Below, piece after piece: positions 41,968 through 60,870 of a DNA stretch of 64,000 nt. The notes under the pieces are model-generated. The model was given only the letters and a program-made list of their open reading frames with translations, was not told where the DNA came from and searched no databases. The stretch is from assembly GCA_905478415.1 (NCBI GenBank), contig CAJQIG010000001.1, forward strand, positions 72,818 to 136,817, written 5' to 3'. Positions within the stretch are counted from its first letter, which is position 1, and every line of letters begins with the position of its first letter. The DNA comes from an uncultured Patescibacteria group bacterium. GTDB taxonomy: Bacteria; Patescibacteriota; Microgenomatia; UBA1400; PJMF01. The position numbers and the translations under genes are program-made.

Positions 41968-42942
41968 ATGCATGCATTTTTACACGAAAAAACAGTGGTA
42001 GTTACTGGCGCAGCTGGTTTTTTAGGGTCACATCTGTGTGACCGACTACTTGATGCGGGTAGTACCGTTATTGGTGTCGATAATTTTATTACTGGTAGGC
42101 GTGAAAACCTAGCACACCTAGAAAAAAACGAAGCTTTTACTTTTATTGAAGCCGATGTTAACAGTGAACCACAAAGCTATTTGAAAGATTCTATTCCGGA
42201 TGTAGTTCTCCACTTTGCTTCTCCTGCCTCTCCCCCACGCTACCAGGAACATCCAACTGAAACATACTTAGTTAACTCGTATGCAACACATTTATTACTG
42301 AGTTTTCTTAAAAAAGTGAATCCTCAGGCGCGGTTTTTATTTGCAGGAACCTCTGAGGCGTATGGCGACCCGGCCGTGCACCCACAACCAGAAACCTATT
42401 GGGGAAATGTGAATCCAAACGGTATTCGCTCTTGCTATGATGAAGCTAAGCGCATGGGGGAAACGGTCTGTGGAGTATTTCATAGAGATATGGGCATGGA
42501 TACCAGGATTGTCAGAATTTTTAATACCTATGGTCCGCGGATGAATCCGGCCGATGGACGAGTCATTCCTAATTTTGTCATGCAAGCACTTCGAGGTGAG
42601 GCTGTAACTATCTATGGAGATGGTACCCAAACCCGTTCATATTGTTTCGTTGATGATTTAGTTTCTGGTATTCTCACCTTTCTCGTTCACCCTGATTTAG
42701 CCGGAGAAACTCTGAACATTGGAAATCCTGAAGAGTTTACTATTTTAGAAACTGCTCGGGAGATTGAAAAAATCGTTGGCGAAGTAATACACACCTTTGA
42801 ATCATTACCAGGAGATGATCCCATGCGTCGTCAACCAGATATTTCAAAAGCCAAAAGATTGCTCGGCTGGGAACCGAAAGTTACTTTTGGTGAAGGTTTA
42901 CAGCAGACAATCGAGTATTTTAGAACGCAACTGGATAGTTAA
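41968..42942 (+). CDS. UDP-glucuronate decarboxylase (UDP-xylose synthase), extended SDR
   Basis: 324 aa with [19 protein letters not shown], the catalytic [14 protein letters not shown] (YxxxK) and [10 protein letters not shown]. All match UXS/ArnA-C-type decarboxylases. Confidence 0.75.
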
Positions 42943-47400: not shown

Positions 47401-47961
47401 CACACGTGCAAATTCATTGAGATATAAGGCTTCACCCTTACTATATTCTCTGTTCATTGTTGAATAGAGGGGCCAGTGTAAGTATTTTTGTCCAGCACCA
47501 TAGACAGCTATGGCCAGAACAGTTGTCGCCAAGACTATCAAAAAAAGTTTAACATCACTTCTCTTTTTGATGGCACTAAAGGTAAAGAAAAAAAGTAGGA
47601 AGTATTCAATGTATCGAAAAAGATGCAAGCCACTTTTTCCAATGTGAATGAGTTGCGGAGGTATAGTGGTGGTTAAAAAGAGACCAAACAATATTGAAAT
47701 GAAGCCAACAAGTATGTAGAGTAAGATCAAAAAGGTAAGCGGTGTTTTCCATGCAATCTTTTTTCTGAGTACTTGCACAAACCAAATAATTGCTGTGATG
47801 AAGACTAAGATATCTTCGGCTCGTGCTCTAACAATATAACCAGGAAGGACATCAAAAAGTGGAATTTTGGGAAAGAGTGGAATAAAGGCAAAAAGAAAAG
47901 CTGTTGTGATTAACAGTGCAGAAGTGTCAAACCAGTGAGTTATCTTTTTGAGCGGTTGCAT
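44416..47961 (-). CDS. Large fusion membrane protein: Wzy_C/O-antigen-ligase-like N-terminal part plus extra transmembrane segments and a roughly 420-aa C-terminal extracytoplasmic domain
   Basis: Start chosen at MQPLKKITHWFD (47961), by analogy with the paralog at 32533-34212. The first 560 aa align block-for-block with that paralog. The C-terminal domain has metallophosphoesterase-like strings (ITGDILYNYD, FAPGNFDL, IYIISGDMKPN), which is only a weak call. Confidence 0.6.
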   Translation of the reverse strand: MQPLKKITHWFDTSALLITTAFLFAFIPLFPKIPLFDVLPGYIVRARAEDILVFITAIIWFVQVLRKKIAWKTPLTFLILLYILVGFISILFGLFLTTTIPPQLIHIGKSGLHLFRYIEYFLLFFFTFSAIKKRSDVKLFLIVLATTVLAIAVYGAGQKYLHWPLYSTMNREYSKGEALYLNEFARVQSTFAGHYDLTAYLVLVLPLLFAVLLSTKSNRAKIGLIAAQIAGVWLLIAGSSKSSLAAYGVTIAIVLFFKFKETHRSVTTILKWATLSLLGGITIVFGVLFIAPDFYRSLAVLSKTVPPVHAIVLKIDAKLPVNSPLKLPGENRSPEGNLKPDDVYIDVPDLVQIAITDPETGVTTYRLVEKERTWSENALKYGLSMGIRLDTLWPLALKGFMKNPLTGSGYATLTKGDTTVYTEADSTDNNYLRVLGETGLLGFILFFGSVFYLLKTAYRTTTATDSLIKTLNIGFIAGTVGLLLNALTIDVFAASKVAFTFWSLSGIILASYYIAHPVQAQTKAVDLGRSLKKYVTKYGVLLLFGTCFFFLVYQNPFAERSAVLNFAANPSGAEHIAAARCFLRTGTVELCRGSAVYPARLDLYAILLLPLLKIYNNPGIYFVFNLTLSLTSLWMFTQLLKKISKHAFIRTTALVLLISSQAFITAVSTPSAGIFLLFLLLLTLPLTQRSRAITLFGAIATGVVALLVADTTAALIALLILGFAFALEWLYQKFEHQKGLTHLFIPMLKVGTVTLASILFTFTYLSRTTLETTLQNFRSTQPNWRYTAVSQINDFFYENTVGENPFFDPTKTPYLITAMNPYYVDMFSNGMYTLLPLSKEQTYMDHPNSVWEEDHSYKNLTALYHQILASNSLFASNFDLDANTTPSFSALHTEFDLDIIRLGCNYTCILYQVREQLPFTSPTPKTINAPLQLETLPEDYRFTVASTRFSFAENLSVHSLSALVSAYKQVGKEAEFSVITGDILYNYDQEQIDALSQLYLETPEAPPTLFAPGNFDLLPQKKFETAYHHFYTPEDYFLFISTNQKGETTQLQQHYILNQILDLEKMDTISTVFIFIDRANWVGYDANLQSMSQMSISNSPSSADSFMIQQVLPRLEKLPSKNIYIISGDMKPNQSAAQFSYQKEGSNITFLASGLSNTTGDRFIEFSKNAAKWSYSFKKVE

Positions 47962-48007
47962 GCTTTTTATTGTATCGTATTTATTTGATGAAATGGATCG
48001 AGATTTG

Positions 48008-48032
48008 GTGCGGGTCGCAAAGCGACCCGCAC
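48008..48032. other. GC-rich perfect hairpin in a short intergenic spacer
   Basis: GTGCGGGTCGC-AAA-GCGACCCGCAC is an 11-bp perfect stem with no U-tract on either strand. Confidence 0.4.
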
Positions 48033-48050
48033 TGTTGGAAATGGGGAAAA

Positions 48051-48233
48051 CTATGGAACAAGGATCGATGCTCCAATCACAATACAAGCGATTGCGACAA
48101 GAGCTAAGACAAAAATAATACGGGCTGCGGTATCAGTAACGTGCACTCCTTCGGCCCAAGGGCTTCTGAGTACCAAAAGTAAGATGAGCCCTACCAGGGC
48201 TCCAATGATTATTAGTGATAATCCAAGGGGCAT
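48051..48233 (-). CDS. Possible small two-transmembrane-helix membrane protein (60 aa)
   Basis: MPLGLSLIIIGALVGLILLLV...FVLALVAIACIVIGASILVP forms two hydrophobic helices. It sits between two large membrane-protein genes on the same strand. Confidence 0.35.
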   Translation of the reverse strand: MPLGLSLIIIGALVGLILLLVLRSPWAEGVHVTDTAARIIFVLALVAIACIVIGASILVP

Positions 48234-48251
48234 GGTTATTCTCCTTGATAC

Positions 48252-48446
48252 TTATGTGGTTGCCGCAAGGACGAACCAAAAGTATCCTAGGCCGGAAAGA
48301 AGTAAGATCATTCCGATAAAAAAAAGTTTTGCAGTTGTGTTTTGATAAACAATGTTTGTACTGTTTTGTTCTGTTCTAGACCTAAAAAATACAACGATCA
48401 GTAGAATTAATCCACAAATCACACTTATAGATGCAATTGTAGCCAT
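48252..48446 (-). CDS. Possible small two-transmembrane-helix membrane protein (about 64 aa from MATIASISVI)
   Basis: Two hydrophobic helices. The ORF track gives 48252-48509 using an upstream ATG. Same-strand operonic context. Confidence 0.3.
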   Translation of the reverse strand: MATIASISVICGLILLIVVFFRSRTEQNSTNIVYQNTTAKLFFIGMILLLSGLGYFWFVLAATT

Positions 48447-48538
48447 CCTGTTCCTCCATTTTAAAGAAAAGTACTTGGAGTGTGTGAGCGCGGAGCTCAA
48501 ACATTCCAAGTGTGATTTATTGTATCATAATAAGATGT

Positions 48539-50314
48539 TTATATGTCGTATTTGACAATTAAGAACTCATTGTTCTCTAGTATGGTTTGATAGTTTTCAT
48601 TTGTAAATATTGTATGTATTGTGTCGATTGACTCCTCTAGCATTAGTTTTTTGTTAAATTTTATGTATGTGACGTCTTTTTGATTGAGAAGCTCATACGT
48701 ATCTAAACTTTTTGAGTTTTCGACTGAAGTTCTAAAGTTATGAATAAAATCATCAATGTGTTTTGGTTGGAAGCCGCTGTAGCCATTAACAAGCTGGCAG
48801 TCATAATGCATGTTGTTCAAGAGCATTTTGGTCCAGTAATTTAGGGTTATCAAGACATGAGTTTTTGGTTGTTCAGGTGCAAATGGATATTCTAAAAGCA
48901 CGTCATTTACTTGACATTCAGATATCAAGTAATTGTAGCTGTCATCTCGGTAGGTATCTACAGCAGTTCTTTGTTTAATTGGAACGATTTCTAGTATGTA
49001 CAATGCTGTTATCAACGTAATAATAAAAATTGCTTTCTTAATTGTATATGATTTAAAAATTGAGTTGAGTGCTACACCAACAAAGTAAAACATACCCACT
49101 TGAACTACAAAAAACCATCTAGATATCACTCGTAATGCTGAAAAAAAAGGAGTTAGTTTAAGTGGAAAAATATACGGCAATGGTATGGCAAGATATTTTC
49201 CATTAAGACTGAGTCGAGGTCCGAGTACTGCTATTATTCCCCATCCGAGCAACAACATAAAGAAATGAAAGATTTGCCTTTCTTTCTTTGTTAAGGAAGA
49301 TTTCCTTAGTTTTTTTATTCCATATGTAACAACAATTAAAAGTATGAAGCCTGTCCCAAATGTTTCTCCTCCAAGGCGATGGTTATGGACATTTATTTTT
49401 TTATAGAATGATTCAACCCAGAAGCTTGGAAGCGGGTTAAAAAAGAAATCAGTGATTTGCATCGAATGATTTATATAGGTATCCGCTGAACGTTCTATCT
49501 CATATACTCTTTGGATTTGCACAAATTTGAAAACAAAGTAACCTGCAATAACAAGAAAGCCCAAGAAAAATAATGATCCTTGTTGTATGGACTTCAGTAA
49601 AGCTTTGGAATCAAAAGCTTTTTTATATTTTTTCCTAAAAAGGTTTTTGAATTGGATATGAGTACTCATTTTCAAAAGAAAGAATATACCTGAAATTGTT
49701 AAGGAGTAAATGCCAATGTAGACTGCAGCTAAAAATTGCAATCCGCTCAAGAAACCAGCGAACACATATTCTGATCTTTTTTTTGCTGTGAGTAGTACTC
49801 CTAATGAAAAAAAGAAAAACCAATATGAGATCATTTGATAATGTGCATACATGGTAAATACATACGGTGAAAAAGTGAAAAGTAATGTCAACAAAAATAT
49901 AGTTTTTTTATCTTTAAAAACTTTATTCCAAAAGAACTGTAGAGAAATGATATTTAGTAATCCAACTGCTAGAAAAACAAGATTGTGAGTTGTTATGTAG
50001 TCTTCTGTAAAAGGGAAAATAAATAGTCCCAAAATACTTTGTGGGAGTAGCAGATCAGTAAAGTACTTTCCTCCTGGAGTTGGATAGAACATTGAGATAT
50101 TTCCGAAATTCATGAAATCTAGTGTGGAAATGTGCTGTATATTCTGTTGGAGAATGTAGACCATCAATGGATAGTCGTACCAATCTGATAAAGCTGAAGA
50201 AATGTGTAACACCAGTGTTTTATTGAAAAGTAAAAATAAAAAGAATATAAATAAGACCGAGAGGATGGAAAACGCTTTTGCTTTTGAGAGTTGTATTAAT
50301 TTTTTCTTTGACAT
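48539..50314 (-). CDS. Large polytopic membrane protein, GT-C-like (function unknown)
   Basis: 591 aa with many transmembrane helices and a C-terminal soluble domain. Very AT-rich. Divergently arranged with the plus-strand island. Confidence 0.5.
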   Translation of the reverse strand: MSKKKLIQLSKAKAFSILSVLFIFFLFLLFNKTLVLHISSALSDWYDYPLMVYILQQNIQHISTLDFMNFGNISMFYPTPGGKYFTDLLLPQSILGLFIFPFTEDYITTHNLVFLAVGLLNIISLQFFWNKVFKDKKTIFLLTLLFTFSPYVFTMYAHYQMISYWFFFFSLGVLLTAKKRSEYVFAGFLSGLQFLAAVYIGIYSLTISGIFFLLKMSTHIQFKNLFRKKYKKAFDSKALLKSIQQGSLFFLGFLVIAGYFVFKFVQIQRVYEIERSADTYINHSMQITDFFFNPLPSFWVESFYKKINVHNHRLGGETFGTGFILLIVVTYGIKKLRKSSLTKKERQIFHFFMLLLGWGIIAVLGPRLSLNGKYLAIPLPYIFPLKLTPFFSALRVISRWFFVVQVGMFYFVGVALNSIFKSYTIKKAIFIITLITALYILEIVPIKQRTAVDTYRDDSYNYLISECQVNDVLLEYPFAPEQPKTHVLITLNYWTKMLLNNMHYDCQLVNGYSGFQPKHIDDFIHNFRTSVENSKSLDTYELLNQKDVTYIKFNKKLMLEESIDTIHTIFTNENYQTILENNEFLIVKYDI

Positions 50315-50435
50315 ACCGTATGCAATGGATTATTACATGTCTAAGTGAATTTATGAAGAAACAGAAGTATAGTATACTAACCAAACTTTACTTTATGATT
50401 ATTTGAAGTTTGTTTTAAGAAAGAGTAGCTAAATA
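50315..50435. promoter_or_regulatory. Divergent AT-rich promoter region of the low-GC island
   Basis: 121-nt spacer between divergent genes. Contains TATAGT/TATACT -10-like hexamers and an AAGAAAGAG ribosome-binding site before the 50436 ATG. Confidence 0.3.
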
Positions 50436-52970
50436 ATGTCAAACATGTTCTCTCATAGCACAAAACGAATATTGAGTAATAAATTTTTTAAAATTGCTGC
50501 CTTTTTTGTATTTATATTAATACTTTTTGTTTATCAGATATTTGCACTAGTAAAAAATCGTGCTAAGTCTTTAGATGATCAACAAATCACCACACTCGTT
50601 CAAAGGGTCTCATTCAGTTCAGAACAAAATTTTAGTAAAATATTGTCTAAAGACAAAAGAACTTTCTCCTTCAAGGCTGAAAATAATAATTTAGGCATCA
50701 TTGCTGTTTTAATAAATAATTATGACCAAGTGAATTCTGACCAACTCACATTTCGAATACGGGAAAAGACTTCTGATAATTGGTATTTCCAAGAGAAATA
50801 TACTACATCCAAGATGAATGCCTCCTATTTCTATACTTTTGGATTTCCACTAATAGCTGAATCAAAAGGAAAAGAATACTTGGTTGAGATAGAATCAATT
50901 GCTGGAGTTCCTAATAATTCAATTTCTTTACATTCTGATTCGCGTTTTTTTATGGCTAAATATTCGTATCCAAAGTCGTATTTGTTTGATCATAGTGATG
51001 AAATTGTTCCATTTACAATTAAAAGAATAGAAGGATATCGCGAGTATCTTTCAAAGGCAGATGTCTTCGCTCTATTTTTGAAAACCTTGGGATGGACAGC
51101 TGTAGTGGGTATTATATTCTATATTTCTAAGAAATATTTTCTTGAGATTATTGCAGGGTATTTGAATAGTATTTACGCAAGAAAGAATGAATTAGCAGAA
51201 TATTTAAAAGACTATGTTGGTTCAAAGTCTTTCAAAAGTGAACTGCTTTTTGTTTTGACTCCAGTAATGGCGTTGTTAGATTTTGCTTTTTTTTCTCCTT
51301 TTACAAAAGAAATTGGGATACCATTGCTTGTTATAATTTCTCTTTTAAATATCGGATATTTATATTTAATATATGTATCCTTTAATGCAATTTTAAGTTT
51401 TGTTAGAGATAAAATATATTATCCAATTGCTTTTCCAGTAGTAGTATTTGTTGTCAGTAGATTGTTTTTTCTTGATGCTGTACCCCGATGGGATAGTGCA
51501 GTTTACTTTCATGCATTACTTAAGAGCATGGCAAAGTTTGATTACAGTATCGGGTCGTTTTTAGGTTTTAATTGGTTTGGGCACCCGTCAATGGGTTTTG
51601 GGCTTTATTCCTCCATTTTTCAATTTCTAAAACCAGATAGCATTTTAATGGTAAATATTGGAAATATTTTCTTAGGAATTATTGCAATTATTTCTTTTTA
51701 CTTAATTAGTCTCTACTTTTTTGAAAATAGAAAAAAAATTGAACTTGTTTTATTAACTACAATGTTTGCTATAAACCCCTTGTTTTTTAGCGTCTCCACT
51801 GCTTTTTTACCAGATTTTGGAGTGATTGTATTTTTCTTAGCAGCATTAGCAGCATTTTTTAATAAAAAACATTTACTGACAACATTCTTTTTTCTATTAA
51901 TGGTTTTTTCTAAAGAAACTGGTGTTTATACATATGGTTTCTTTCTTTTGTTTATTTCAATATTTGTTTTATTGCAACGTCTTTCTAAAATCCATCCAGA
52001 AAAAATAATCAGTTTTTTCTTTGCTCTGATTCCAGGGCTTAGTTTTCTTTTATACTTCATACATAGTAAGGGTAGACATTGGACTGCTGGAAAGCCAATT
52101 GTTATTTCAAATGATTGTTTTTTTTGTTTTTCGTTTCAACCTGCTCACTTTATTCAAAATATTGAAGTTATGTTTATACTAAATTTTAGTTGGATTTTAA
52201 GTGTCATAATCATTATCTCTTTAATTCTTCATTTTTTTAAACGTCAACAATTTTCTTCTTTTTCAAGTGCAGTGAAAAAACAAGAGTTTAAATCTTTAGT
52301 TGCAACTTTTGTTAGTTTTGTCGTCTTTTTTATGGTTTTTGTTATTTATATTATTCCAAGTTATATGACAATTTCTGTTGTGTTTTTACTATTTATAGCT
52401 TATTTTTCATTACTACAATTAAAAATAAACTCTGGATTTAGAATTTTGATACTACTATTTGTCACAACTATATTTTTGATTCAAAGCTTTTTTAACATAG
52501 ATTGGTTGTCTTCGAAGATCTTTGGTGAGTTTAGCCTTGGGAATCACCAAGTGGTAAAAGTTGGTTCTGAATATTCCTGTGATGGATTGATTTATAATAC
52601 TCAATATTTGTACATAGATCGTTTAATTACAAAGTTCCATCAGGAGTTTGGTATTAGTGAGAGTGATTCCATTATTATGAACGCTTCACACTGGCATAGT
52701 TTTTACCTTGGTGGAGGTGGGTACGAAGTATATATAGACCCAAATACCTTGCAAAAAACGTTTATGAAAACAAATGGATTTCGTCCTCAGATATACCCTT
52801 TGAAGGCAGCTAAAACATACCCTGATGAGGCATACTATTTAGCTTTCCCATGGTTAGAAGATGAAGGTAGTTCTCTTGAGATTCTCAAAGGGTTCTATAG
52901 TATTGATAAGGAAACAAGAATTACTACTGGTGGATACTGGATAACTGTATATAGTCTGTCTAAGAAATAA
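50436..52970 (+). CDS. Large polytopic membrane protein (844 aa), putative GT-C-type glycosyltransferase
   Basis: N-terminal transmembrane helix, a roughly 200-aa soluble region, at least 12 transmembrane helices including a LDAVPRWDSAVYF loop, and a C-terminal soluble domain. Confidence 0.5.
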   Translation: MSNMFSHSTKRILSNKFFKIAAFFVFILILFVYQIFALVKNRAKSLDDQQITTLVQRVSFSSEQNFSKILSKDKRTFSFKAENNNLGIIAVLINNYDQVNSDQLTFRIREKTSDNWYFQEKYTTSKMNASYFYTFGFPLIAESKGKEYLVEIESIAGVPNNSISLHSDSRFFMAKYSYPKSYLFDHSDEIVPFTIKRIEGYREYLSKADVFALFLKTLGWTAVVGIIFYISKKYFLEIIAGYLNSIYARKNELAEYLKDYVGSKSFKSELLFVLTPVMALLDFAFFSPFTKEIGIPLLVIISLLNIGYLYLIYVSFNAILSFVRDKIYYPIAFPVVVFVVSRLFFLDAVPRWDSAVYFHALLKSMAKFDYSIGSFLGFNWFGHPSMGFGLYSSIFQFLKPDSILMVNIGNIFLGIIAIISFYLISLYFFENRKKIELVLLTTMFAINPLFFSVSTAFLPDFGVIVFFLAALAAFFNKKHLLTTFFFLLMVFSKETGVYTYGFFLLFISIFVLLQRLSKIHPEKIISFFFALIPGLSFLLYFIHSKGRHWTAGKPIVISNDCFFCFSFQPAHFIQNIEVMFILNFSWILSVIIIISLILHFFKRQQFSSFSSAVKKQEFKSLVATFVSFVVFFMVFVIYIIPSYMTISVVFLLFIAYFSLLQLKINSGFRILILLFVTTIFLIQSFFNIDWLSSKIFGEFSLGNHQVVKVGSEYSCDGLIYNTQYLYIDRLITKFHQEFGISESDSIIMNASHWHSFYLGGGGYEVYIDPNTLQKTFMKTNGFRPQIYPLKAAKTYPDEAYYLAFPWLEDEGSSLEILKGFYSIDKETRITTGGYWITVYSLSKK

Positions 52971-52996
52971 GTTTTTATTTGTGATAAATTAACATT

Positions 52997-53617
52997 ATGC
53001 TAATAAACTCAATACTACAATATCCTCTCATCTGGGATCTTTCACAAATTATTTTTGGGGCAAACAAGCAAAAGAAAGAGTTATACCGATCACTCATTAA
53101 AAAGAAGGGTGCGCTGCTTGACTTTGGTTGTGCTGACGGAAATACTTTTTTAGCATTTAAAAATTTTGATTATACTGGTCTTGACATTGATGCCAAGGCC
53201 ATTGCTCATGCTGAACAAAAGTATGTTGATTTTCCTAATGCCACATTTATTTGTGATGATGTGTTGAAAAACAACCTCCCAAAAGAGAGTTATGATACCA
53301 TTTTATTTGCTGGTACAGCTCATCATCTTCCTGACAAAGATTTATTCAAGATTACAAGGGCGCTTGCGCGTTTACTAAAAAAAAATGGCTGCTTGTATTT
53401 TGTTGATCCTGTTAAAGATACATCGAGAAAATCAAAATTACTTTCTTTCTTAATATCTCTTGACCAAGGGAAGTTTCATAGAGATGAAAAATTTTATACT
53501 AAGAATTTAAAAAAATTTTCAAAAGACCTTAAGCCCAAATTCACTAGAACACATTTCATGACTGGTACTTTTATGCCTCAGCCAACGTATTATATTGCTA
53601 AATTTGTTAAGGCCTAA
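52997..53617 (+). CDS. Class I SAM-dependent methyltransferase
   Basis: 206 aa. LLDFGCADGNTFLAF is the SAM motif I (Methyltransf_11/12-like). Confidence 0.7.
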   Translation: MLINSILQYPLIWDLSQIIFGANKQKKELYRSLIKKKGALLDFGCADGNTFLAFKNFDYTGLDIDAKAIAHAEQKYVDFPNATFICDDVLKNNLPKESYDTILFAGTAHHLPDKDLFKITRALARLLKKNGCLYFVDPVKDTSRKSKLLSFLISLDQGKFHRDEKFYTKNLKKFSKDLKPKFTRTHFMTGTFMPQPTYYIAKFVKA

Positions 53618-53619
53618 TT

Positions 53620-55239
53620 ATGAGTTTTCTTGCTCCTAGATCATATTTTTCTCAGATGGGAGAAGACAAGTATATTGATACTGAAATTTTTTTAGGTAAA
53701 AGCAATGGTGTGTTTTTAGATATTGGAGCACATGATGGAAAAACATTTAGTAACACCTATTTCTTAGAGAAGTATCGTAACTGGAACGGTATTTGCGTGG
53801 AGCCACTTCCAGATATTTTTAAAAAACTCAAGAAAAATCGAAAAGCCATAGCAATCAATGCCGGTGTGGGTTTAAAAAAAGGAAAAGAAAAGTTTTTAGA
53901 GGTTAGTGGTGATGGAAACGCAGAAATGTTTTCTGGCTTACTTGCTTCTTTTGATCCTCGTCAAATTAGAAATATTAAGAAGGAAGTAAAAAAACGTAAT
54001 GGAAAAATAAAAGAAACAGTAATTGATATAGTGCCACTGTCAACTATTCTTAAGAAGAATAAGATTACTCACGTTGATTATTGCTCCATAGATACCGAAG
54101 GTAATGAACTTGATGTCCTAAAGTCAATTGATTTTTCAGCTTGTAGTATAACTTGTTTTACTGTCGAAGACTTATTTGGTAGCAAAGAACTTCGTTCTTT
54201 TATGAAAGAAAAAGGCTATACCTTAGTGAAAACTCTTGATAAGGATTTGGTCTTTCTTCATAAATCTTCAATGCAAATAGGTGGTAATAAAGCAGATGTG
54301 GAAATGGTGAAATCAGGCACGCAGACTCTTTCGGTTGTCATTCATACAAAAAACGAAGAAAAGATGATAGCGGATTGTATTCAGTCTGTTAAAAAGATTG
54401 CAGACGAGATTATTGTTGCTGATATGCAGAGTACAGATAATACAATTGGTATTGCAAAAAAATTAAAAGCAAAAATTATATCAGTCCCAGAGTACGGTTT
54501 TGCTGATCCAGCTAGAAATTTAGCGCTTTCAAAGGTTACAAAGGATTGGGTTCTTGTTCTTGATGCAGATGAAAGGATCACACCAAAACTAGAAAAAAAA
54601 ATAAAAAGATTGATACGCGGTGGAACTTGTGATGTTGTTAGTTTTCCAAGAAAAAACATAATGCTGGGAGGGTGGATTAAGCATGGATTGAGATGGCCAG
54701 ACTATCAAATTCGTTTGTTTAGAAAAGGTTTTGCAAGCTGGAGTGACATGATTCATGATCCGGCTCATTATACGGGGCGTTTTTACAGGCTGCCAGCAAA
54801 GGAAGTAAATGCCTTAGTCCATTATCATAGCGATAGTATTAGTTACTTAATGGATAAAACATACCTCCAGGCCTCTTTAGAACGTTTCTATGATAATCAA
54901 GAAGATTTGTCAATTGATACCATTTACGACAGGATGGGTAAGGAGTTTGTTTGGCGCTTCTTTGAACATGAAGGTTATAAAGATAAAATGCATGGATTAA
55001 TAGTAAATAAATTTATGGAGTTTTATAGGTTTCTAGAATTTGCTATGTATTGGGAGCGAAGTGGCAAACCCGAACTAGCAACAATCAAAGAATTAGATAG
55101 TCTTTGGAATATTGAGAACAAGCTCAATGAAACAACGGACGAACTCAACAGAATTAAAGATTCAAAATTTTATATTTTTTGGAAAGCTTATTCATATTTG
55201 AAAGATTTATTTAAAAATATGCAATCAAAATTACACTAG
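53620..55239 (+). CDS. FkbM-family methyltransferase fused to a GT2 glycosyltransferase
   Basis: 539 aa. The N-terminal half (FLDIGAHDGKTFSNTYFLEKYRNWNGICVEPLP) is FkbM/Methyltransf_21. The C-terminal half (LSVVIHTKNEEKMIADCIQSV...VADMQSTDNT...LVLDADE) is GT2. Confidence 0.7.
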   Translation: MSFLAPRSYFSQMGEDKYIDTEIFLGKSNGVFLDIGAHDGKTFSNTYFLEKYRNWNGICVEPLPDIFKKLKKNRKAIAINAGVGLKKGKEKFLEVSGDGNAEMFSGLLASFDPRQIRNIKKEVKKRNGKIKETVIDIVPLSTILKKNKITHVDYCSIDTEGNELDVLKSIDFSACSITCFTVEDLFGSKELRSFMKEKGYTLVKTLDKDLVFLHKSSMQIGGNKADVEMVKSGTQTLSVVIHTKNEEKMIADCIQSVKKIADEIIVADMQSTDNTIGIAKKLKAKIISVPEYGFADPARNLALSKVTKDWVLVLDADERITPKLEKKIKRLIRGGTCDVVSFPRKNIMLGGWIKHGLRWPDYQIRLFRKGFASWSDMIHDPAHYTGRFYRLPAKEVNALVHYHSDSISYLMDKTYLQASLERFYDNQEDLSIDTIYDRMGKEFVWRFFEHEGYKDKMHGLIVNKFMEFYRFLEFAMYWERSGKPELATIKELDSLWNIENKLNETTDELNRIKDSKFYIFWKAYSYLKDLFKNMQSKLH

Positions 55240-56192
55240 TGAAAAAACACACGTTTTTAATTACTGGCTCAACAGGTTTTATAGGTTCAGTTTTGTTGCG
55301 CACCTTGCTTCGAAGAGGAGAAAAAGTTGCTATTATTTTGCGGAAAGAATCGAATGTTTGGCGCATCAGTGACTTACTGGGTCAGGTCACTATTCATTAT
55401 TCGGACTTATCTTCATTACCTAAGTTAGAGAGTATTATTAAAAAAGTAAAGCCAACTGTTATTTACCATTTAGCTACAAATGGAGCTTATTCATATCAAG
55501 ATAATGCAGATCAAATTATTCAAACAAATATTCTAGGCACATGGAACTTATTGCAAGCATGTAATATAGTTGATTACGAATTATTTGTGAATACGGGCAG
55601 TTCTTCGGAATATGGTTTTAAGCAATTTGCTATGAGGGAAACTGACATTACAGAACCGGCAAGTTATTATGCTGTAACGAAGTGTGCACAGACACTTTTA
55701 TGTTCTCATATTGCTCGTCAAGAAAAAAAACCGATAGTTACTTTGAGACCCTTTTCCGTTTATGGCCCATTTGAAGAGCCTCGTCGCCTTGTTCCCACCT
55801 TAATGATGTCTCTCTTACAGAATAAAAAAATGAGTCTAGTATCTCCGACTATTGCGAGAGACTATATTTATATTGATGATATGGTATCTGCTTATCTTAA
55901 GATAAGTAAACTTAAAATGAATTCTGGTGAGTATTTTAATATTGGTACTGGAGTACAAACAACAATTAAGGAAATAGTAAATAAATCATCGAGAATAAGT
56001 GGAAAAGAAGGCAATTTTATTTGGGAAGGTCTTGATAATAGAAAGTGGGATACAGATGTTTGGGTGGGCGATATATCCAAAGCCAAAAGGCTTTTAAACT
56101 GGCAACCAAAACATTCTTTGGAATCTGGTATAACTGAAACATGGAAGTGGTTTGAAAAAAATTATAAGAAATATAGTTATGAAAAAAAATAA
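55239..56192 (+). CDS. NAD-dependent sugar epimerase/dehydratase/reductase (extended SDR)
   Basis: 317 aa with the Rossmann motif ITGSTGFIGSVLLRTL and the catalytic YAVTK (YxxxK). Confidence 0.7.
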   Translation: MKKHTFLITGSTGFIGSVLLRTLLRRGEKVAIILRKESNVWRISDLLGQVTIHYSDLSSLPKLESIIKKVKPTVIYHLATNGAYSYQDNADQIIQTNILGTWNLLQACNIVDYELFVNTGSSSEYGFKQFAMRETDITEPASYYAVTKCAQTLLCSHIARQEKKPIVTLRPFSVYGPFEEPRRLVPTLMMSLLQNKKMSLVSPTIARDYIYIDDMVSAYLKISKLKMNSGEYFNIGTGVQTTIKEIVNKSSRISGKEGNFIWEGLDNRKWDTDVWVGDISKAKRLLNWQPKHSLESGITETWKWFEKNYKKYSYEKK

Positions 56193-57075
56193 GGTTAGTT
56201 GTGCGATTTGTAATACAGTAGATAATTACTCAGTTTTATACGAACAAAATTACAAAGATGACGATTTTAACGTCGATATTTTTTCTGCTAGAAGGTTACC
56301 AGACAAAATTCATTATCAATTAGTAAAATGCAATTCGTGTGGTCTAGTCCGATCTACTCCAGTTATTGAAAATGACATCTTAAATGACTTGTATGTCAAA
56401 AGTAAATTAACATATAATACAGAAGTTGAAAACTTAAAAACCACCTATCTAGAAGCACTTTCTCCAATTTTAAATAGACTCGCAAAGAAGTCAGCAATTC
56501 TTGAAATTGGATGTGGAAATGGTTTTGTTGTAGAAGAGTTGTGCAAACAAGGGTACACAAATACTTTTGGAATTGAACCTAGCATAGATGCGGTTGAAAA
56601 AGCACCAGATGATTTATCAAAGCGAATTGTACTTGATTATTTCAAGGATGGGCTTTTTAAAGAAAATACATTTAACTTTATTTTCATATTTCAAACTTTA
56701 GATCATATTCCAAACCCTGATCAGTTCTTGAAGGAGTGTCACAGAGTTTTGAAGCCTAATGGATATATCTTTGCATATAATCATGATGTTGAAAGTATTT
56801 CAGCTAAGATCCTCGGTGAGAAAAGCCCCATTTTTGATATAGAACACACTTTTCTTTATAGTACTGATACAATTAAAAAGATATTCAACAAGAATAGATT
56901 TGAGGTGCTTTCAGTTGATAAACCATTGAATACGCTATCTTTAAAACATCTTACCTGGTTACTACCTTTACCTAGAAGAATTAAAAGGTGGTTGTTAAGA
57001 TCGAATAGTTCATTGTTTAATATAAATATAAAGATACCACTTGGTAACCTAGCAATTACGGCAAGGAAAAAATGA
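56179..57075 (+). CDS. Zn-ribbon plus class I SAM methyltransferase (NDP-sugar C-methyltransferase-like)
   Basis: The N-terminus has CAICN...(38 aa)...CNSCG, i.e. CxxC-CxxC, followed by the SAM motif ILEIGCGNGFVVEEL. Start chosen at 56179 (the ORF track gives 56152). Confidence 0.55.
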   Translation: MKKNKVSCAICNTVDNYSVLYEQNYKDDDFNVDIFSARRLPDKIHYQLVKCNSCGLVRSTPVIENDILNDLYVKSKLTYNTEVENLKTTYLEALSPILNRLAKKSAILEIGCGNGFVVEELCKQGYTNTFGIEPSIDAVEKAPDDLSKRIVLDYFKDGLFKENTFNFIFIFQTLDHIPNPDQFLKECHRVLKPNGYIFAYNHDVESISAKILGEKSPIFDIEHTFLYSTDTIKKIFNKNRFEVLSVDKPLNTLSLKHLTWLLPLPRRIKRWLLRSNSSLFNINIKIPLGNLAITARKK

Positions 57076-57782
57076 AATTCACTGAACGTCAAAAGAAATT
57101 GAGAAAAAGACTAATGGAGGTTGTTTTTAAAGCCAACGCTTCGCATATCGGATCGTCTATAAGTGTGATTGATATAATTGATTCTATTTTTGAAATTAAA
57201 TCTAGTGAAGACCGTTTTGTACTCTCAAATGGACATGCAGCAGCAGCCTATTATGTAGTCTTAGAGAAAAACAACTATCTAAAAAATATTGACTTAAATA
57301 CATTGGGGGTTCATCCGGATAGAGATTTAAAAAAACATATTCATGTTTCAACAGGTAGCTTAGGTCAAGGATTACCGATAGCATTAGGAATGGCTTTGGC
57401 AGATAAAAAGAAAACAATTTATTGTTTAATTTCTGATGGAGAATGTGCTGAAGGTAGTATCTGGGAAGCTCTGAGGGTGTATCAACAAGAAGCTCCTAAC
57501 AATTTGAAAATTGTGGTATCAGTGAACGGTTGGGGGGCTTATGATAAAATCTCCTCGAGAGATTTGAAAAAAAGATTTACTGGCTTTGGTCTCAAGGTAG
57601 TAAGTATAAACGGTCATGACCAAAATCAAATTGTGACTTCACTTAAAGAAAAATATGATAAACCAACACTATTTTTTGCTAAAACAAATTCTGATCAATT
57701 ACCCTTTTTGAAAGACTTAGTTGCTCATTATCATTCAATGAGTGAAGAAGAGTATCAGTTAGCTGTAAAGAAATTTTCATGA
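57072..57782 (+). CDS. Transketolase N-terminal (ThDP-binding) subunit
   Basis: 236 aa with SNGHAAAAYYVV, HVSTGSLGQGLPIALGMALA and the ThDP GDG-type motif ISDGECAEGSIWEA. Confidence 0.75.
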   Translation: MKFTERQKKLRKRLMEVVFKANASHIGSSISVIDIIDSIFEIKSSEDRFVLSNGHAAAAYYVVLEKNNYLKNIDLNTLGVHPDRDLKKHIHVSTGSLGQGLPIALGMALADKKKTIYCLISDGECAEGSIWEALRVYQQEAPNNLKIVVSVNGWGAYDKISSRDLKKRFTGFGLKVVSINGHDQNQIVTSLKEKYDKPTLFFAKTNSDQLPFLKDLVAHYHSMSEEEYQLAVKKFS

Positions 57783-58276
57783 CAGACTATAGCCAAAACC
57801 TACGAAGAAGATTTGCTGATGAACTCTATGCTGCAATGGAAAAGAACAGAGATATTTTTGTTTTAACAGGTGATCTGGGGTATAGAGTTTTAGATCAAAT
57901 TAAGGTTGATTTCCCAGACCGGTTTCTTAATGTTGGTGCTGCAGAGCAATCTCTCATTGGAATTGCTGTGGGAATGGCTCTTGAAGGAAAGATTCCGGTT
58001 GTATACTCTATTACTCCCTTTCTTTTGTATAGACCGTTTGAAACCATTAGAAACTACATTGATCATGAAAAAATTCCAGTGAAGCTCATTGGTTCTGGAC
58101 GAGACAAAGATTATGGCCATGATGGTTTTTCTCACTGGTCATGTGAAGATAGAGATGTGATGAAAATATTTAGTAATATTAAATCAGCTTGGCCAGATTC
58201 AGCTGATGAAGTCTCAGTTCTTCTGCCCAAGCTGCTGAGTGATACAAAACCTTGGTATCTAAACTTGAAAAGATAA
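57779..58276 (+). CDS. Transketolase pyrimidine-binding-domain subunit (short C-subunit)
   Basis: 165 aa. GAAEQSLIGIAVGMALEGKIPVVYSITPFL matches the transketolase central domain. Has a 4-nt overlap with the N-subunit gene. Confidence 0.7.
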   Translation: MTDYSQNLRRRFADELYAAMEKNRDIFVLTGDLGYRVLDQIKVDFPDRFLNVGAAEQSLIGIAVGMALEGKIPVVYSITPFLLYRPFETIRNYIDHEKIPVKLIGSGRDKDYGHDGFSHWSCEDRDVMKIFSNIKSAWPDSADEVSVLLPKLLSDTKPWYLNLKR

Positions 58277-58279
58277 AAT

Positions 58280-59245
58280 ATGGGCAAAAAAAAGATTTCG
58301 GCTATTATTGCTTGTTATAAAGATGAGCAAGCAATTCCTTACATGTACCTTCGTTTGAAAAAAGTATTCAAACAACTTTCTGTTGAACATGAAATAATTT
58401 TTGTGAACGATGGGAGTCCTGACAATACCGAAGAAGTTCTAGAAGCATTAGTGAAAAAAGATGCAGCTGTTATAGCGATAACTCATTCTAGAAATTTTAG
58501 CTCTCAAATGGCTTTTACAAGTGGTATGGATATTGCAACGGGAGATTGTGTAGTCTTTCTTGATGGTGATTTACAAGATCCACCTGAGATGATTGCCAAG
58601 TTTTATACAAAATGGCTGGAAGGTTTTGATGTTGTCTATGGAGTTCGTGTTAAACGGGAGGCTCCCTTGTTAATGCAGTGGGCTTATAAAGGCTTTTATC
58701 GTGTTTTTAATAAAATATCATATATTCATATCCCTTTAGATGCTGGCGACTTTTCTTTGATAGATAAAAAGGTATATAGTGAGTTGAAAAGACTTCCAGA
58801 GCGAGATAGATTCTTGCGAGGTCTAAGAGCTTGGCTTGGTTTTAAACAAGTTGGTGTTCCTTACATTAGACCAGAACGAAAATTTGGTGTAACAACAAAT
58901 AATCTAATTAAAAATTTTCAATGGGCTACAAAAGGTATTTTTTCTTTTTCTTATATCCCATTACAAATAATGACGTTCACCTCTTTAGCTGTATTCTTAC
59001 TTTCGTTATTTGGAATTGTATATCAAATTGCTCTATCCTTATTCTTTCCAGAATCCACACCAGACGGAGTGAGTACCATTATTGTATTAGTGTTATTTAT
59101 TGGTTCAATCCAGCTATTAGGAATTAGTATTTTAGGTGAGTACATTGCTAAAATCTTTGAAGAAGTAAAGCAAAGACCAAAGTATATTGTTAAAAATGTG
59201 TTGAGAAAAAAAGTTTCTTATTCTTTAGATAAAGAAACCGTATAG
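58280..59245 (+). CDS. GT2 polyprenyl-phosphate glycosyltransferase (Dpm1/GtrB/ArnC-like)
   Basis: 321 aa with ISAIIACYKDEQAI...FVNDGSPDNT...FLDGDLQDPP (DxD) and two C-terminal transmembrane helices, as in GtrB/ArnC. Confidence 0.75.
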   Translation: MGKKKISAIIACYKDEQAIPYMYLRLKKVFKQLSVEHEIIFVNDGSPDNTEEVLEALVKKDAAVIAITHSRNFSSQMAFTSGMDIATGDCVVFLDGDLQDPPEMIAKFYTKWLEGFDVVYGVRVKREAPLLMQWAYKGFYRVFNKISYIHIPLDAGDFSLIDKKVYSELKRLPERDRFLRGLRAWLGFKQVGVPYIRPERKFGVTTNNLIKNFQWATKGIFSFSYIPLQIMTFTSLAVFLLSLFGIVYQIALSLFFPESTPDGVSTIIVLVLFIGSIQLLGISILGEYIAKIFEEVKQRPKYIVKNVLRKKVSYSLDKETV

Positions 59246-60870
59246 ATATTACACAAATTAAAACAGCCTTCATGAACTTTTTCTAGTTCAAAGGTTTCAG
59301 AATATTTCTTAAAGGTATTTTTAAATTGACCTGAAGCTTCGATTCCATAGTTAGCCAGATAGATTTTTTCGCCATTTGTAAGCTTTTGTGTATAGGTTTC
59401 CAGTAAACTCTGATTGTTAGGAACTCCCCAGACTTCTAGTTTTTTCTGATTAAAATCCTGCTGTTCATCAAAAGGCAGTACAACATAGGTGTTGTTAGTG
59501 AAAAAATCAACCATATAGGGTGAGGTTAAAGAAATAAGTTGGGCCTGCTCTTCTCTCCTCGAAGAAAAGAACGCATTGTATTCTTGGATCGAAAGGTACC
59601 ACCAAGGTGATTCGGCATACTTCAGATTTAGCATGACTTGTGATTTGAGGGGAAGTAATCTGCTACCTAGGAGTATGATCCCAAGTATAAGAGTGGTTCC
59701 TGGTACAAATAGTTTTTTAGGAATAGAGAGTTTCTTAAGAAGCATTTGAATTCTTTTTTGAGAAGAAATATTATCTAACAAAAGTGCCAGGCCAAGTAGG
59801 ATGGCAAAAAATCCAGTAAAGATATATCTCGAGTCAAATGCATAAAAGGTAGACATAAAAATGGTTTGTGCGAGTGTGCTGATACCTAAGTAGAGGGCAA
59901 ATGTTCGGTGTTTTGGTTTTATAAGTGCGGACAGAATTCCAAGAAACCCCAGCCATCCGATCAGTTTGGAAAACCAAGGTCTGACATCCCACAAAAATCG
60001 AGCTGGATGACCAAGTAAAATCTGCACATATTCAGAAAAATGATCAGCAAAGACTGACATACCAAAGTAACTGTTTGTAACAGTGCTTGATCCTGGCGCT
60101 TGGGTTTTTGGAGTGATAATTCTGAGTAAGAAAGCTATGCTTTTAGCGAAATTATAGGAAAAAGGTAGCAGTAATAGAATTGGAAGCCCAAGTATGATAG
60201 TTGCGATCAGGGTTTGTTTATATTTTTTCTGTCGAAGATTAGGCAAGGCCATCTTGAAAAATTGCACCGCAACCAGAGTAACTACCAGTGGCACATAGGC
60301 AAATTTTGTAAAGTAAAATGCAACTGCAACGGTGCCAGTAGCTAATAAAACTTTTTTAGTTGTCTTTTGAAGCATCAGATAACAACTGAGTAGAAACAGC
60401 GGTACTAGGAGGTTCTCGGCCATAGCTAGAGTTGGCAGCCAGAAAAAGTGATAGCTAGTGACAGTTATGCCAAGCACTAATGCGTGAATAAACGGTTCCT
60501 TGGTGATTTTTTTTAGAATTGCGTACAAGAGTACTACACTCAAATAACTTAAAAATACATTGGTAAAGTAGAAGGTTCTGGGATCAAAAGAAAGTAAAAA
60601 CCCAGGTAATAATGCCAATGAATACCCTTGTGGTACTGACGGGTCACTACCAGGTAGACCAGTTTGCAGTCCCGACCGACAGAGGTTCCAAGTGCCTTCG
60701 GCAATAAAGCATCTAGCCACCGTTACATAGTGAAACGAGTCGGGAAAAGGTTCGAAGTTGGGAATGAGTGTTCGAGTGCTATAGGGGTTACGAAAGAGCA
60801 GAAAAAAGAGGGCAAAACTGGCAAGAAAGAGTGGCCAATGACGACCAAACAGGTACTTAATTTTTTTCAT
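59218..60870 (-). CDS. Polytopic GT-C-like membrane protein
   Basis: 550 aa with many transmembrane helices and a periplasmic loop EPFPDSFHYVTVARCF. Its 3' end overlaps the convergent GtrB-like gene by 28 nt. Confidence 0.5.
   Translation of the reverse strand: MKKIKYLFGRHWPLFLASFALFFLLFRNPYSTRTLIPNFEPFPDSFHYVTVARCFIAEGTWNLCRSGLQTGLPGSDPSVPQGYSLALLPGFLLSFDPRTFYFTNVFLSYLSVVLLYAILKKITKEPFIHALVLGITVTSYHFFWLPTLAMAENLLVPLFLLSCYLMLQKTTKKVLLATGTVAVAFYFTKFAYVPLVVTLVAVQFFKMALPNLRQKKYKQTLIATIILGLPILLLLPFSYNFAKSIAFLLRIITPKTQAPGSSTVTNSYFGMSVFADHFSEYVQILLGHPARFLWDVRPWFSKLIGWLGFLGILSALIKPKHRTFALYLGISTLAQTIFMSTFYAFDSRYIFTGFFAILLGLALLLDNISSQKRIQMLLKKLSIPKKLFVPGTTLILGIILLGSRLLPLKSQVMLNLKYAESPWWYLSIQEYNAFFSSRREEQAQLISLTSPYMVDFFTNNTYVVLPFDEQQDFNQKKLEVWGVPNNQSLLETYTQKLTNGEKIYLANYGIEASGQFKNTFKKYSETFELEKVHEGCFNLCNIYTVSLSKE

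Follow-up and report, generated by a model that had tools for sequence, protein, structure and literature searches.

What is a transketolase (TK) doing in two short genes within a run of glycan genes of an uncultured Patescibacteria group bacterium? The question arises from a 64,000-nucleotide stretch (the window) of contig CAJQIG010000001.1 (assembly GCA_905478415.1, forward-strand positions 72,818 to 136,817), in which an earlier note had seen a split TK beside a short-chain dehydrogenase/reductase (SDR) and a methyltransferase and had proposed a branched-chain sugar pathway. The genes at issue, with the domains that bind the pyrophosphate (PP) and pyrimidine (Pyr) ends of thiamine diphosphate (ThDP) on separate chains, are as follows in window coordinates.

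55239-56192, + strand: extended SDR, 317 aa, GTG start; Pfam Epimerase, 4e-45, also GDP_Man_Dehyd
56179-57075, + strand: Zn-ribbon plus class I S-adenosylmethionine (SAM) methyltransferase, 298 aa; Pfam Methyltransf_23, 2e-20, also Methyltransf_11/25
57072-57782, + strand: TKα, ThDP-binding (PP) domain, 236 aa; Pfam Transketolase_N, 4e-17
57779-58276, + strand: TKβ, Pyr domain only, 165 aa; Pfam Transket_pyr, 2e-19
58280-59245, + strand: GtrB/ArnC-type polyprenyl-phosphate glycosyltransferase of the GT2 family; PDB sll0501/GtrB, 1e-69

The four open reading frames (ORFs) from the SDR to TKβ are real, as had been claimed, with Pfam matches to each and coordinates that include 4-nt overlaps, which read ATGA in the sequence at 57072 (methyltransferase/TKα) and 57779 (TKα/TKβ). 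For the methyltransferase, the ORF listing starts at a TTG (56152); public assemblies call a product of 298 aa, which corresponds to a start at the ATG at 56179. Our analysis suggests that TKα and TKβ most likely pair, as α (PP) and β (Pyr) chains, in a minimal ThDP enzyme of TK lineage that is intact, and that they belong to a hitherto undescribed clade of minimal TKs without the C-terminal domain (C-domain), coupled to an SDR and located in putative envelope-glycan operons of the candidate phyla radiation (CPR) as well as on viral contigs. On the reading that we favour, to which we give an even chance, TKαβ and the epimerase-like SDR would act on a nucleotide-activated keto-sugar, and C2 ketol transfer would build a C-branched envelope sugar.

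Both Pfam models proposed earlier as a check on the TK genes, Transketolase_N and Transket_pyr, gave the matches listed above. The NCBIfam transketolase model matched TKα at 1e-40, yet with only 139 bits (62 bits for TKβ) against an equivalog cut-off of 488 (NF004559), and the best PDB matches were the split TK entries 6YAK for TKα (6e-25) and 6YAJ for TKβ (3e-20, spanning residues 39-192 of 341). Transketolase_C (PF02780) had no Pfam match in either chain, and in the alignment to canonical TKs the final residue of TKβ is the equivalent of R520, bearing out the remark that the 165-aa protein lacks the usual C-terminal domain. The ThDP motif, given earlier as GDG, in fact reads SDG...N, and its S121-D122-G123-E124 is invariant in 24 family members. 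In the numbering of E. coli TktA, which was checked against Stutzerimonas TktA (73% identity, 2 gaps), TKα keeps the equivalents of H26, H66, H100, D155, E160, N185 and H261, the last taken from the first alignment, its column being shifted in the second, while TKβ keeps those of R358, D381, E411, D469, H473 and R520. The PP domain thus carries a variant of the GDG-x(25-30)-N motif together with the His26/His66/His100/His261 set of transketolase (EC 2.2.1.1), and the Pyr domain its Glu411, Asp469 and His473. Because the ThDP-binding and catalytic residues are conserved and the chain ends at R520, we consider TKαβ to be intact and specialised.

Two neighbouring ORFs that together match the N-terminal part and the middle of a TK could also be the remains of an ordinary tkt gene split by a frameshift. 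The conservation data refute this explanation, which we regard as practically excluded: more than 150 loci, at 48-87% identity, share the two-gene layout, the lengths and the ATGA overlap, the TKα/TKβ overlap being retained, by ORF coordinates, in four divergent relatives; the C-domain is cleanly absent, with the TKβ stop at 58276 and the GT2 start 4 nt on; and several samples yielded the identical TKβ protein, on 23 contigs of up to 584 kb (ENA ERZ23498645 scaffold_3). More than 120 database relatives of TKα, at 53-72% identity, are nearly all 234-249 aa long. An exhaustive HMMER search with TKβ found Pyr-only proteins of 150-175 aa filling dozens of 50%-identity clusters, and proteins of about 300 aa with Pyr and C-domain only farther out, at about 40% identity; a single-chain PP + Pyr form (P0240) likewise ends without a C-domain. 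Close homologues are labelled Shapirobacteria, Amesbacteria, Pacebacteria and Gottesmanbacteria. The uniform lengths, layout and overlap among relatives establish the pair as a real, conserved and specialised split ThDP enzyme in a glycan locus, as the earlier note had supposed.

With respect to canonical TK, the pair carries the substitutions I187W, I189A, S385R/K, F434I, Y440T and H461G. Position 461 is Gly in all of about 95 family loci; nearly all of them have an aromatic residue at 187 and about three quarters K/R at 385, whereas the housekeeping controls keep His461 and Ser385 (79 of 80 control loci, retrieved with the patterns TGSLGQGLP and [ED][KR]F[IV]LSNGH common to all transketolases, were ordinary tkt genes). 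The sugar-phosphate set Arg358/Ser385/His461/Arg520 is therefore only half retained, with R358 and R520 kept, His461 replaced by Gly and Ser385 mostly by K/R; in ordinary TK, R358 and R520 are binders of the sugar phosphate. The large-to-small changes H461G, I189A, Y440T and F434I, together with K/R385, would suit a bulky nucleoside diphosphate (NDP)-sugar whose diphosphate could be held by R358, R520 and K/R385.

A plainer explanation is that TKαβ is a reduced, split housekeeping TK of the pentose phosphate pathway that merely lies beside glycan genes, in keeping with the reduced genomes of CPR bacteria, with the intact catalytic and two of four phosphate-binding residues, and with the finding of no other tkt within the 64-kb window (of a 584-kb contig). 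We consider this very unlikely: Gly461 is found in every member where ordinary TKs keep His, the pair has neither the C-domain nor the NCBIfam score of a pentose-phosphate transketolase, the latter being far under the equivalog cut-off, and it lies in a low-GC island. Its synteny with SDR, methyltransferase and GT2 is held across loci at 45-87% identity, and the TK pair also occurs on phage contigs. In addition, an ordinary split TK (280 + 331 aa), with H461, S385 and the C-domain, is encoded in a Paceibacterota genome (L016), indicating that CPR bacteria do have the conventional form.

The sizes of the subunits, 236 + 165 aa with PP and Pyr domains only, also resemble those of two-chain ThDP 2-oxo-acid decarboxylases of the sulfopyruvate (ComDE) or phosphonopyruvate type, which would supply an aldehyde or acyl substituent and make no sugar C–C bond, and weak NCBIfam matches were obtained to the sulfopyruvate decarboxylase β subunit (4.5e-5) and to phosphonopyruvate decarboxylase (4e-4). 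The similarity to transketolase is far stronger (1e-40; 6YAK), the TK-specific H26, H66, H100, H261, H473 and R358/R520 are all kept, and no phosphoenolpyruvate (PEP) mutase or aminotransferase partner recurs among the neighbours, which makes a decarboxylase improbable.

The genes that accompany the pair were followed through 84 cellular or metagenome loci, 42 of them with full flanks. TKα adjoins TKβ in 62 of the 63 scorable loci of this set, and in 76 of 78 viral loci, a pairing far beyond chance. A GtrB-like GT2 is present in 42 of 58 cellular loci and stands immediately downstream of TKβ in 35; among the loci with full flanks, an orthologous SDR was found in 31/42, the GT2 in 30/42 and the 298-aa methyltransferase (MT298) in 29/42. 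Identities across cellular loci range from 42 to 81% for the SDR, from 58 to 87% for TKβ and from 63 to 79% for the GT2. Exact-protein look-up of three divergent members returned the order SDR – (MT) – TKα – TKβ – GT2 with PMT_2/GT-C proteins nearby. Where the orthologous SDR is missing (L160, L147, L174 and L104), another Epimerase-family or classical SDR still lies beside the TK pair, and some type of methyltransferase almost always does in the loci inspected. The conserved module is SDR – (MT) – TKα – TKβ – GtrB-like polyprenyl-phosphate glycosyltransferase. In an Amesbacteria locus (L089, 12037-13353), a gene of the pyridoxal phosphate (PLP)-dependent Orn/DAP/Arg decarboxylase family and a second SDR stand between TKβ/methyltransferase and GT2, which hints at extra sugar tailoring in some lineages.

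The SDR has the motifs GxxGxxG, SSSEYG and YxxxK, with G10/G13/G16, S121-S122-S123-E124-Y125 (the motif running to G126), Y144 and K148 conserved in 43 sequences, and its best PDB matches are the B. cereus UDP-GlcA 4-epimerase 6ZL6 (3e-31), the Thermotoga entry 4ZRM and MoeE5. Since Ser-Ser occupies the position where 4,6-dehydratases have Asp-Glu, we assign it to the epimerase/oxidoreductase type and not to the dehydratases. An SDR adjoins the TK pair in most cellular loci and in 76/80 viral loci and is fused to the TktN half in Paenibacillus, so that a partner NAD(P)H oxidoreductase suited to a branch carbonyl would be at hand. As to the source of a keto-sugar, NDP-keto-sugar-making enzymes are encoded alongside in Paenibacillus (rfbF/rfbG) and in L093, L155 and L157 (NTP-transferase, dehydratase-like SDR, RmlC and SDR in L155; RmlA-D-like genes in L093 and L157), while the window has the epimerase-like SDR and, 13 kb upstream, one further candidate.

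41968-42942, + strand: UDP-glucuronate decarboxylase (UXS) homologue; PDB human UXS1 2B69, 2e-94

UDP-4-keto-xylose, from which the C-4-branched eurekanate is proposed to be made, is released by some UXS-family enzymes (PMC10338323), and this homologue is a possible source of a UDP-4-keto-pentose acceptor. Neither it (0/29 large loci at ≥35% identity) nor an RmlB-type dehydratase or nucleotidyltransferase (only 2-4 of 29 large loci) was found to be co-conserved with the cassette.

A pathway context comes from a cultured organism. A plasmid of Paenibacillus cellulosilyticus KACC 14175 (NZ_CP054609.1) encodes a 635-aa fusion of an Epimerase-type SDR with Transketolase_N (WP_110042955.1), followed by a Pyr + C subunit (WP_110042956.1), in the order rfbF – rfbG – C-methyltransferase (Methyltransf_13+23+14) – SDR-TktN – TktC – TylF O-methyltransferase – GT – GT2/GtrA, where rfbF is a Glc-1-P cytidylyltransferase and rfbG a CDP-glucose 4,6-dehydratase. 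The TK half shares 30% identity with TKα (E 2e-38), and I187W and H461G are common to both. The fusion places the SDR and the TK in one pathway starting from an NDP-4-keto-6-deoxyhexose, and its setting in a cluster with a CDP-glucose 4,6-dehydratase and a TylC3-type C-methyltransferase is what a C-branched-sugar route predicts. The two clusters are alike in the clade signatures, in the physical coupling of SDR to TK, and in having a C-methyltransferase and GT2/GtrA functions; the Paenibacillus cluster, which also has an O-methyltransferase, differs in having Transketolase_C, a full-length TylC3-type methyltransferase and the CDP-glucose 4,6-dehydratase, and in its TK D469 is Gln and R520 is Lys.

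Further TK pairs occur in other settings. In Azospirillum argentinense Az39 (plasmid p5, L175, 48336-50098), a TK N + C pair (39% identity to TKβ; H461G) has two B12-binding radical-SAM proteins, an SDR, a Methyltransf_24 protein and a kinase around it, with transposases at the flanks, in what looks to be a sugar or natural-product tailoring cluster. An Oscillospiraceae TK pair (L026) sits after a Bac_transf gene. A TK-like pair on a Vibrio nigripulchritudo plasmid (L177, 27016-30119) has no equivalents of H26 and H100 and adjoins genes for a RuBisCO-like protein, an ABC sugar transporter and two FGGY kinases; it seems to form a catabolic subfamily with no relation to the glycan clade.

The methyltransferase between SDR and TKα had been likened earlier to Zn-ribbon NDP-hexose C-methyltransferases, and the likeness holds, TcaB9 being its best PDB match in a single-sequence search (7e-10; KijD1 is also among the top matches), while the Pfam models Methyltransf_13/14, by which it was to be recognised, had no match at E≤0.01. 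In the AlphaFold2 (AF2) model (predicted local distance difference test score, pLDDT, 91.5), Foldseek ranks 1-18 are MtmC, TcaB9 and KijD1 (E 3e-13 to 8e-12, query TM-score (TMq) 0.60-0.65), with generic methyltransferases below them at TMq 0.41-0.54. The alignment to TcaB9 covers the second CxxC and the equivalents of H181 and E224-H225. Across 27 homologues there is no variation at the four cysteines of a zinc-binding domain (C8, C11, C51 and C54), Y72, H176 and H223, and at least 90% have E222; Y72, H176, E222 and H223 align with the catalytic Tyr76, His181 and Glu224-His225 of TcaB9, and the Y222 equivalent is Phe/Ile. On this model-based evidence, the protein appears to be related to the NDP-4-keto-sugar C-methyltransferases, minus their C-terminal domain. 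Like the C-3 methyltransferases TcaB9, KijD1 and MtmC, it combines a four-Cys Zn ribbon with a class I fold and the Y76/H181/E224/H225 equivalents; unlike them, it is about 110 residues shorter (298 aa versus about 410 aa for TylC3/TcaB9-type enzymes), carries no Methyltransf_14 and falls under the detection of Methyltransf_13.

The Pyr-only family is also found on 122 IMG/VR contigs, of which 80 (L178-L257) provided the viral counts. An Epimerase-family SDR cluster is present in 76/80 of these loci, together with FkbM methyltransferases (48), GT34-like proteins (32), nucleotidyltransferases (17), GT2 (16), GT17 (15) and large terminases (15). The SDR–TK core often neighbours terminase genes. 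A separate locus (L174, 5702-13965) reads GHMP kinase – NTP-transferase – SDR – TKα – TKβ – gp3 – terminase – portal. Neither the GtrB-like GT2 nor MT298 was found in any of the viral loci examined, and the FkbM domain of the window had no BLAST match to the FkbM genes of the viral contigs. Because the viral loci are without the GtrB-like GT2, SDR and TKαβ would form an invariant core that acts on a soluble (nucleotide) sugar, with lipid-carrier delivery as a cellular add-on. The gene content suggests that phages may use this core to make a modified sugar for virion or host-surface glycans. Three of the viral contigs (L205, L235 and L255), with TKβ relatives at 48-54% identity, are labelled GVMAG (giant-virus metagenome-assembled genomes, MAGs).

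Delivery in the cell is indicated by the genes that follow. The GT2 resembles sll0501/GtrB over residues 5-307 and ArnC at 1e-36 (both PDB), matches PgfS in NCBIfam (2e-68), and has transmembrane (TM)-like segments at 223 and 259, that is, the GT-A domain with two C-terminal TM helices that, along with closeness to characterised members, marks the GtrB/ArnC family. Converging on it from the other strand is a second membrane protein.

59218-60870, - strand: GT-C-fold membrane glycosyltransferase (ArnT-like), 550 aa; AF2 model and Foldseek

This protein had no Pfam or NCBIfam match, and one 40%-identical homologue carries PMT_2. Its AF2 model (pLDDT 89.4) is closest in Foldseek to ArnT (5F15, E 2e-8, TMq 0.53), followed by AglB, ALG9/12, DPY19 and AftA, which points to a GT-C fold of the ArnT-like kind. 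In a contig of the same population (L007:3770-5421), the gene is called as two pieces of 98 + 413 aa versus 550 aa in the window, which suggests strain-level inactivation or variation of this transferase. Coupling to the GtrB-like GT2 and the GT-C protein, which the earlier note had overlooked, leads us to infer that the product of the cassette is delivered via a lipid carrier. GtrB (sll0501, 5EKP) and ArnC, with their partners GtrC and ArnT, use the same two-step polyprenyl-phosphate-sugar route for extracytoplasmic glycosylation. Known GtrB/ArnC systems carry glucose or L-Ara4N (or its formyl derivative), and we know of none associated with a TK-type enzyme.

The favoured pathway can be laid out in five steps. 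An NDP-sugar would first acquire a keto group, at C4 or another position, through the NAD+ of the SDR or through a dehydratase or decarboxylase encoded elsewhere. The Zn-ribbon methyltransferase could then C-methylate beside the carbonyl, as its fold and conserved catalytic His and Glu-His would allow and as TcaB9, KijD1 and MtmC do. TKαβ, with its catalytic residues intact, would draw on a ketol donor (a ketose phosphate, hydroxypyruvate or possibly pyruvate) for a C2 carbanion bound to ThDP, whose addition at the sugar carbonyl would leave a tertiary alcohol bearing a hydroxyacetyl (or acetyl) branch. The branch carbonyl may be reduced by the SDR in a manner analogous to YerF, as the SDR-TK fusion suggests. 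Finally, the GtrB-like GT2 would load the sugar on polyprenyl phosphate and, after flipping, the ArnT-fold GT-C protein would attach it to an envelope acceptor. Domain and fold identities, catalytic residues, the clade signature, synteny and the fusion are observed, and from them we infer the substrate, donor, position of attack and order of steps.

The same genes can be given a different chemistry, in which the acceptor of the C2 ketol is a sugar aldehyde, or in which the TK-like enzyme splits off a ketol side chain. The product, nucleotide- or lipid-linked, would be a sugar with a longer or shorter chain (higher-carbon or ketose type) in place of a tertiary-alcohol branch, and the step might follow transfer to polyprenyl phosphate. 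Aldehydes are the native acceptors of TK, and D469, which reads the 2-hydroxyl of the acceptor in E. coli TK, is retained by the CPR family and lacking in the enzymes of Paenibacillus, Azospirillum and L026. Epimerase-like SDRs can oxidise exocyclic positions, and one NCBIfam match of this SDR is to a heptose 6-epimerase family; moreover, conservation and tightness of linkage are highest for GT2 and TKβ. Against it, the TcaB9/MtmC-like methyltransferase and the CDP-4-keto-6-deoxyglucose context in Paenibacillus favour ring-ketone chemistry, and the viral TK pairs without a GtrB-like gene indicate that the TK step needs no lipid-linked substrate. We consider this alternative rather unlikely.

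C2 ketol transfer to a ring ketone has precedents of different kinds. The earlier note had invoked yersiniose, a comparison that fails at the level of the enzyme, as YerE, whose substrates are pyruvate or 2-oxo acids, is no transketolase but an acetohydroxyacid synthase (AHAS)-like member of the decarboxylase superfamily (PMC9306805, PMC12247030). The logic of YerE and YerF is nevertheless established, namely ThDP-dependent addition to an NDP-4-keto sugar followed by reduction of the branch by YerF (PMC9306805), and other C-branching ThDP enzymes include the YerE-like ErwE and MygE and the αKADH2 pairs AviB1/AviB2, Pau11/Pau12 and KbDH-α/β (PMC9306805, PMC12247030, PMC4753412). Both classes are like the proposed pathway in adding two or more carbons to an NDP-4-keto (deoxy) sugar with NAD(P)H reduction of the branch, while the αKADH2 enzymes are of the E1 α/β type with a C-terminal domain and transfer acetyl groups, unlike the TK lineage of the window enzyme. 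Closer are the split-gene TKs proposed to pass a hydroxyacetyl group onto a keto sugar in miharamycin and amipurimycin biosynthesis and in 13 further Streptomyces biosynthetic gene cluster (BGC) sequences (Krug et al. 2024; PMC12247030, section 2.3). As described there, these are likewise two-gene TKs in sugar-tailoring clusters, with an oxidoreductase partner thought to create the keto acceptor and a proposed C2 (ketol) transfer that yields a tertiary alcohol, as in the favoured reading; the description places them only in streptomycetes and in secondary-metabolite nucleoside pathways, whereas the window enzyme is without a C-domain, occurs in CPR bacteria and viruses, and would feed a GtrB/GT-C lipid-carrier route. 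The split-gene TK of Carboxydothermus hydrogenoformans (6YAK/6YAJ; PMC7661550), itself α2β2 and the closest solved structure, also has two genes and the same catalytic residues, but its 341-aa β chain includes a C-terminal domain, and the enzyme works as a conventional TK on aldehydes, outside any glycan context. Literature searches yielded nothing relevant on split or putative transketolases in polysaccharide, O-antigen or capsule clusters, or on polyprenyl in Patescibacteria.

The proposal of a branched sugar in the earlier note therefore stands as the best-supported reading, by virtue of the intact TK, the C-methyltransferase fold and the Paenibacillus cluster, and several points weigh against it. 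With an SDR of the epimerase-like kind, the cassette has nothing known to yield a stable keto-sugar; a nucleotidyltransferase, a 4,6-dehydratase and RmlC/D were all looked for and not found within the 64-kb window; and a 6-deoxyhexose route is adjacent only in a minority of CPR loci (L093, L155 and L157, above). Retention of R358 and R520, with their role in ordinary TK, would also permit ordinary phosphosugar substrates. Methyltransf_14 (PF08484), the C-terminal sugar-binding domain, had no match in the methyltransferase or in 120 listed homologues, and a 4-sequence methyltransferase profile put the generic methyltransferase 3CC8 above TcaB9, a conflict with the single-sequence search that was settled at the fold level with Foldseek. 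As for precedent, the yersiniose enzyme belongs to a different ThDP family, and the miharamycin-type TKs are uncharacterised in vitro according to the account in PMC12247030. For all members, the proposed mechanism is deduced from sequence, fold and synteny.

We extend the favoured reading to the whole family only tentatively, holding the extension to be somewhat less probable than not: the widespread minimal (PP+Pyr) TK clade of CPR bacteria, phages and possibly giant-virus MAGs would act with its obligate SDR as a branching unit, adding to nucleotide sugars a C-branch derived from hydroxyacetyl. If so, TK-type sugar-branching enzymes would be known for the first time outside Streptomyces and in connection with envelope or virion glycans, and no smaller functional transketolase architecture would be known. 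The transketolase class of keto-sugar branching, which the account in PMC12247030 presents as a proposal only with 13 or so Streptomyces sequences, would then extend to thousands of sequences from uncultured bacteria and viruses. A branched, methylated sugar would be predicted on CPR cell surfaces, where envelope chemistry is almost uncharted, and the SDR+TK core on phage contigs suggests viral remodelling of host or virion glycans. A two-chain TK of 401 aa in total offers a small biocatalyst for α-functionalised tertiary alcohols, and the cultured P. cellulosilyticus is a handle for direct testing.

The unit itself is longer than the stretch 55239-58276 that the earlier note had delimited, since it extends downstream to the GT2 (58280-59245) and the GT-C gene (59218-60870, which converges on the + strand run) and upstream to 50436. 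The ORF listing shows an unbroken + strand run of eight genes spanning 50436-59245, in the order 844-aa membrane protein, 206-aa methyltransferase, FkbM-methyltransferase/GT2 fusion, SDR, Zn-ribbon methyltransferase, TKα, TKβ and GT2, of which the first three are as follows.

50436-52970, + strand: 844-aa polytopic membrane protein, first gene of the run; 14 TM-like segments
52997-53617, + strand: class I SAM methyltransferase, 206 aa; Pfam Methyltransf_25/11/12
53620-55239, + strand: FkbM-type methyltransferase fused to GT2; Pfam Methyltransf_21, 5e-22, and Glycos_transf_2, 2e-22

The 844-aa protein had no family match in Pfam or NCBIfam; a partial homologue lies directly 3' of GT2 in L009, and the protein is possibly a second glycan transferase or polymerase. 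A homologue of the 206-aa methyltransferase (62% identity) is located upstream of the SDR in L096, with weaker homologues in L169 and L171. The fusion gene lies directly upstream of the SDR on the same strand, its stop overlapping the SDR start, and had no detectable orthologues at the other family loci; its operon position suggests that it belongs to the module. The eight-gene run and the flanking membrane proteins coincide with a low-GC island (48000-60000) with a GC content of 0.30-0.35 versus 0.42 in the flanks, which fits acquisition of the entire glycan module by horizontal transfer.

Farther upstream, a PMT_2-type GT-C gene (40392-41885, - strand) stands beside the UXS homologue, and the two resemble a further glycosylation unit, of lipid-carrier or pentose type, in the region. 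Between these and the island lies a gene for a 1223-aa protein (44416-48087, - strand), whose sole match is a sub-threshold one to Wzy_C at residues 272-489 (27.9 bits versus a gathering cut-off of 31.7); it is unusually large for the O-antigen ligase/polymerase family, and the remainder of the chain is unannotated.

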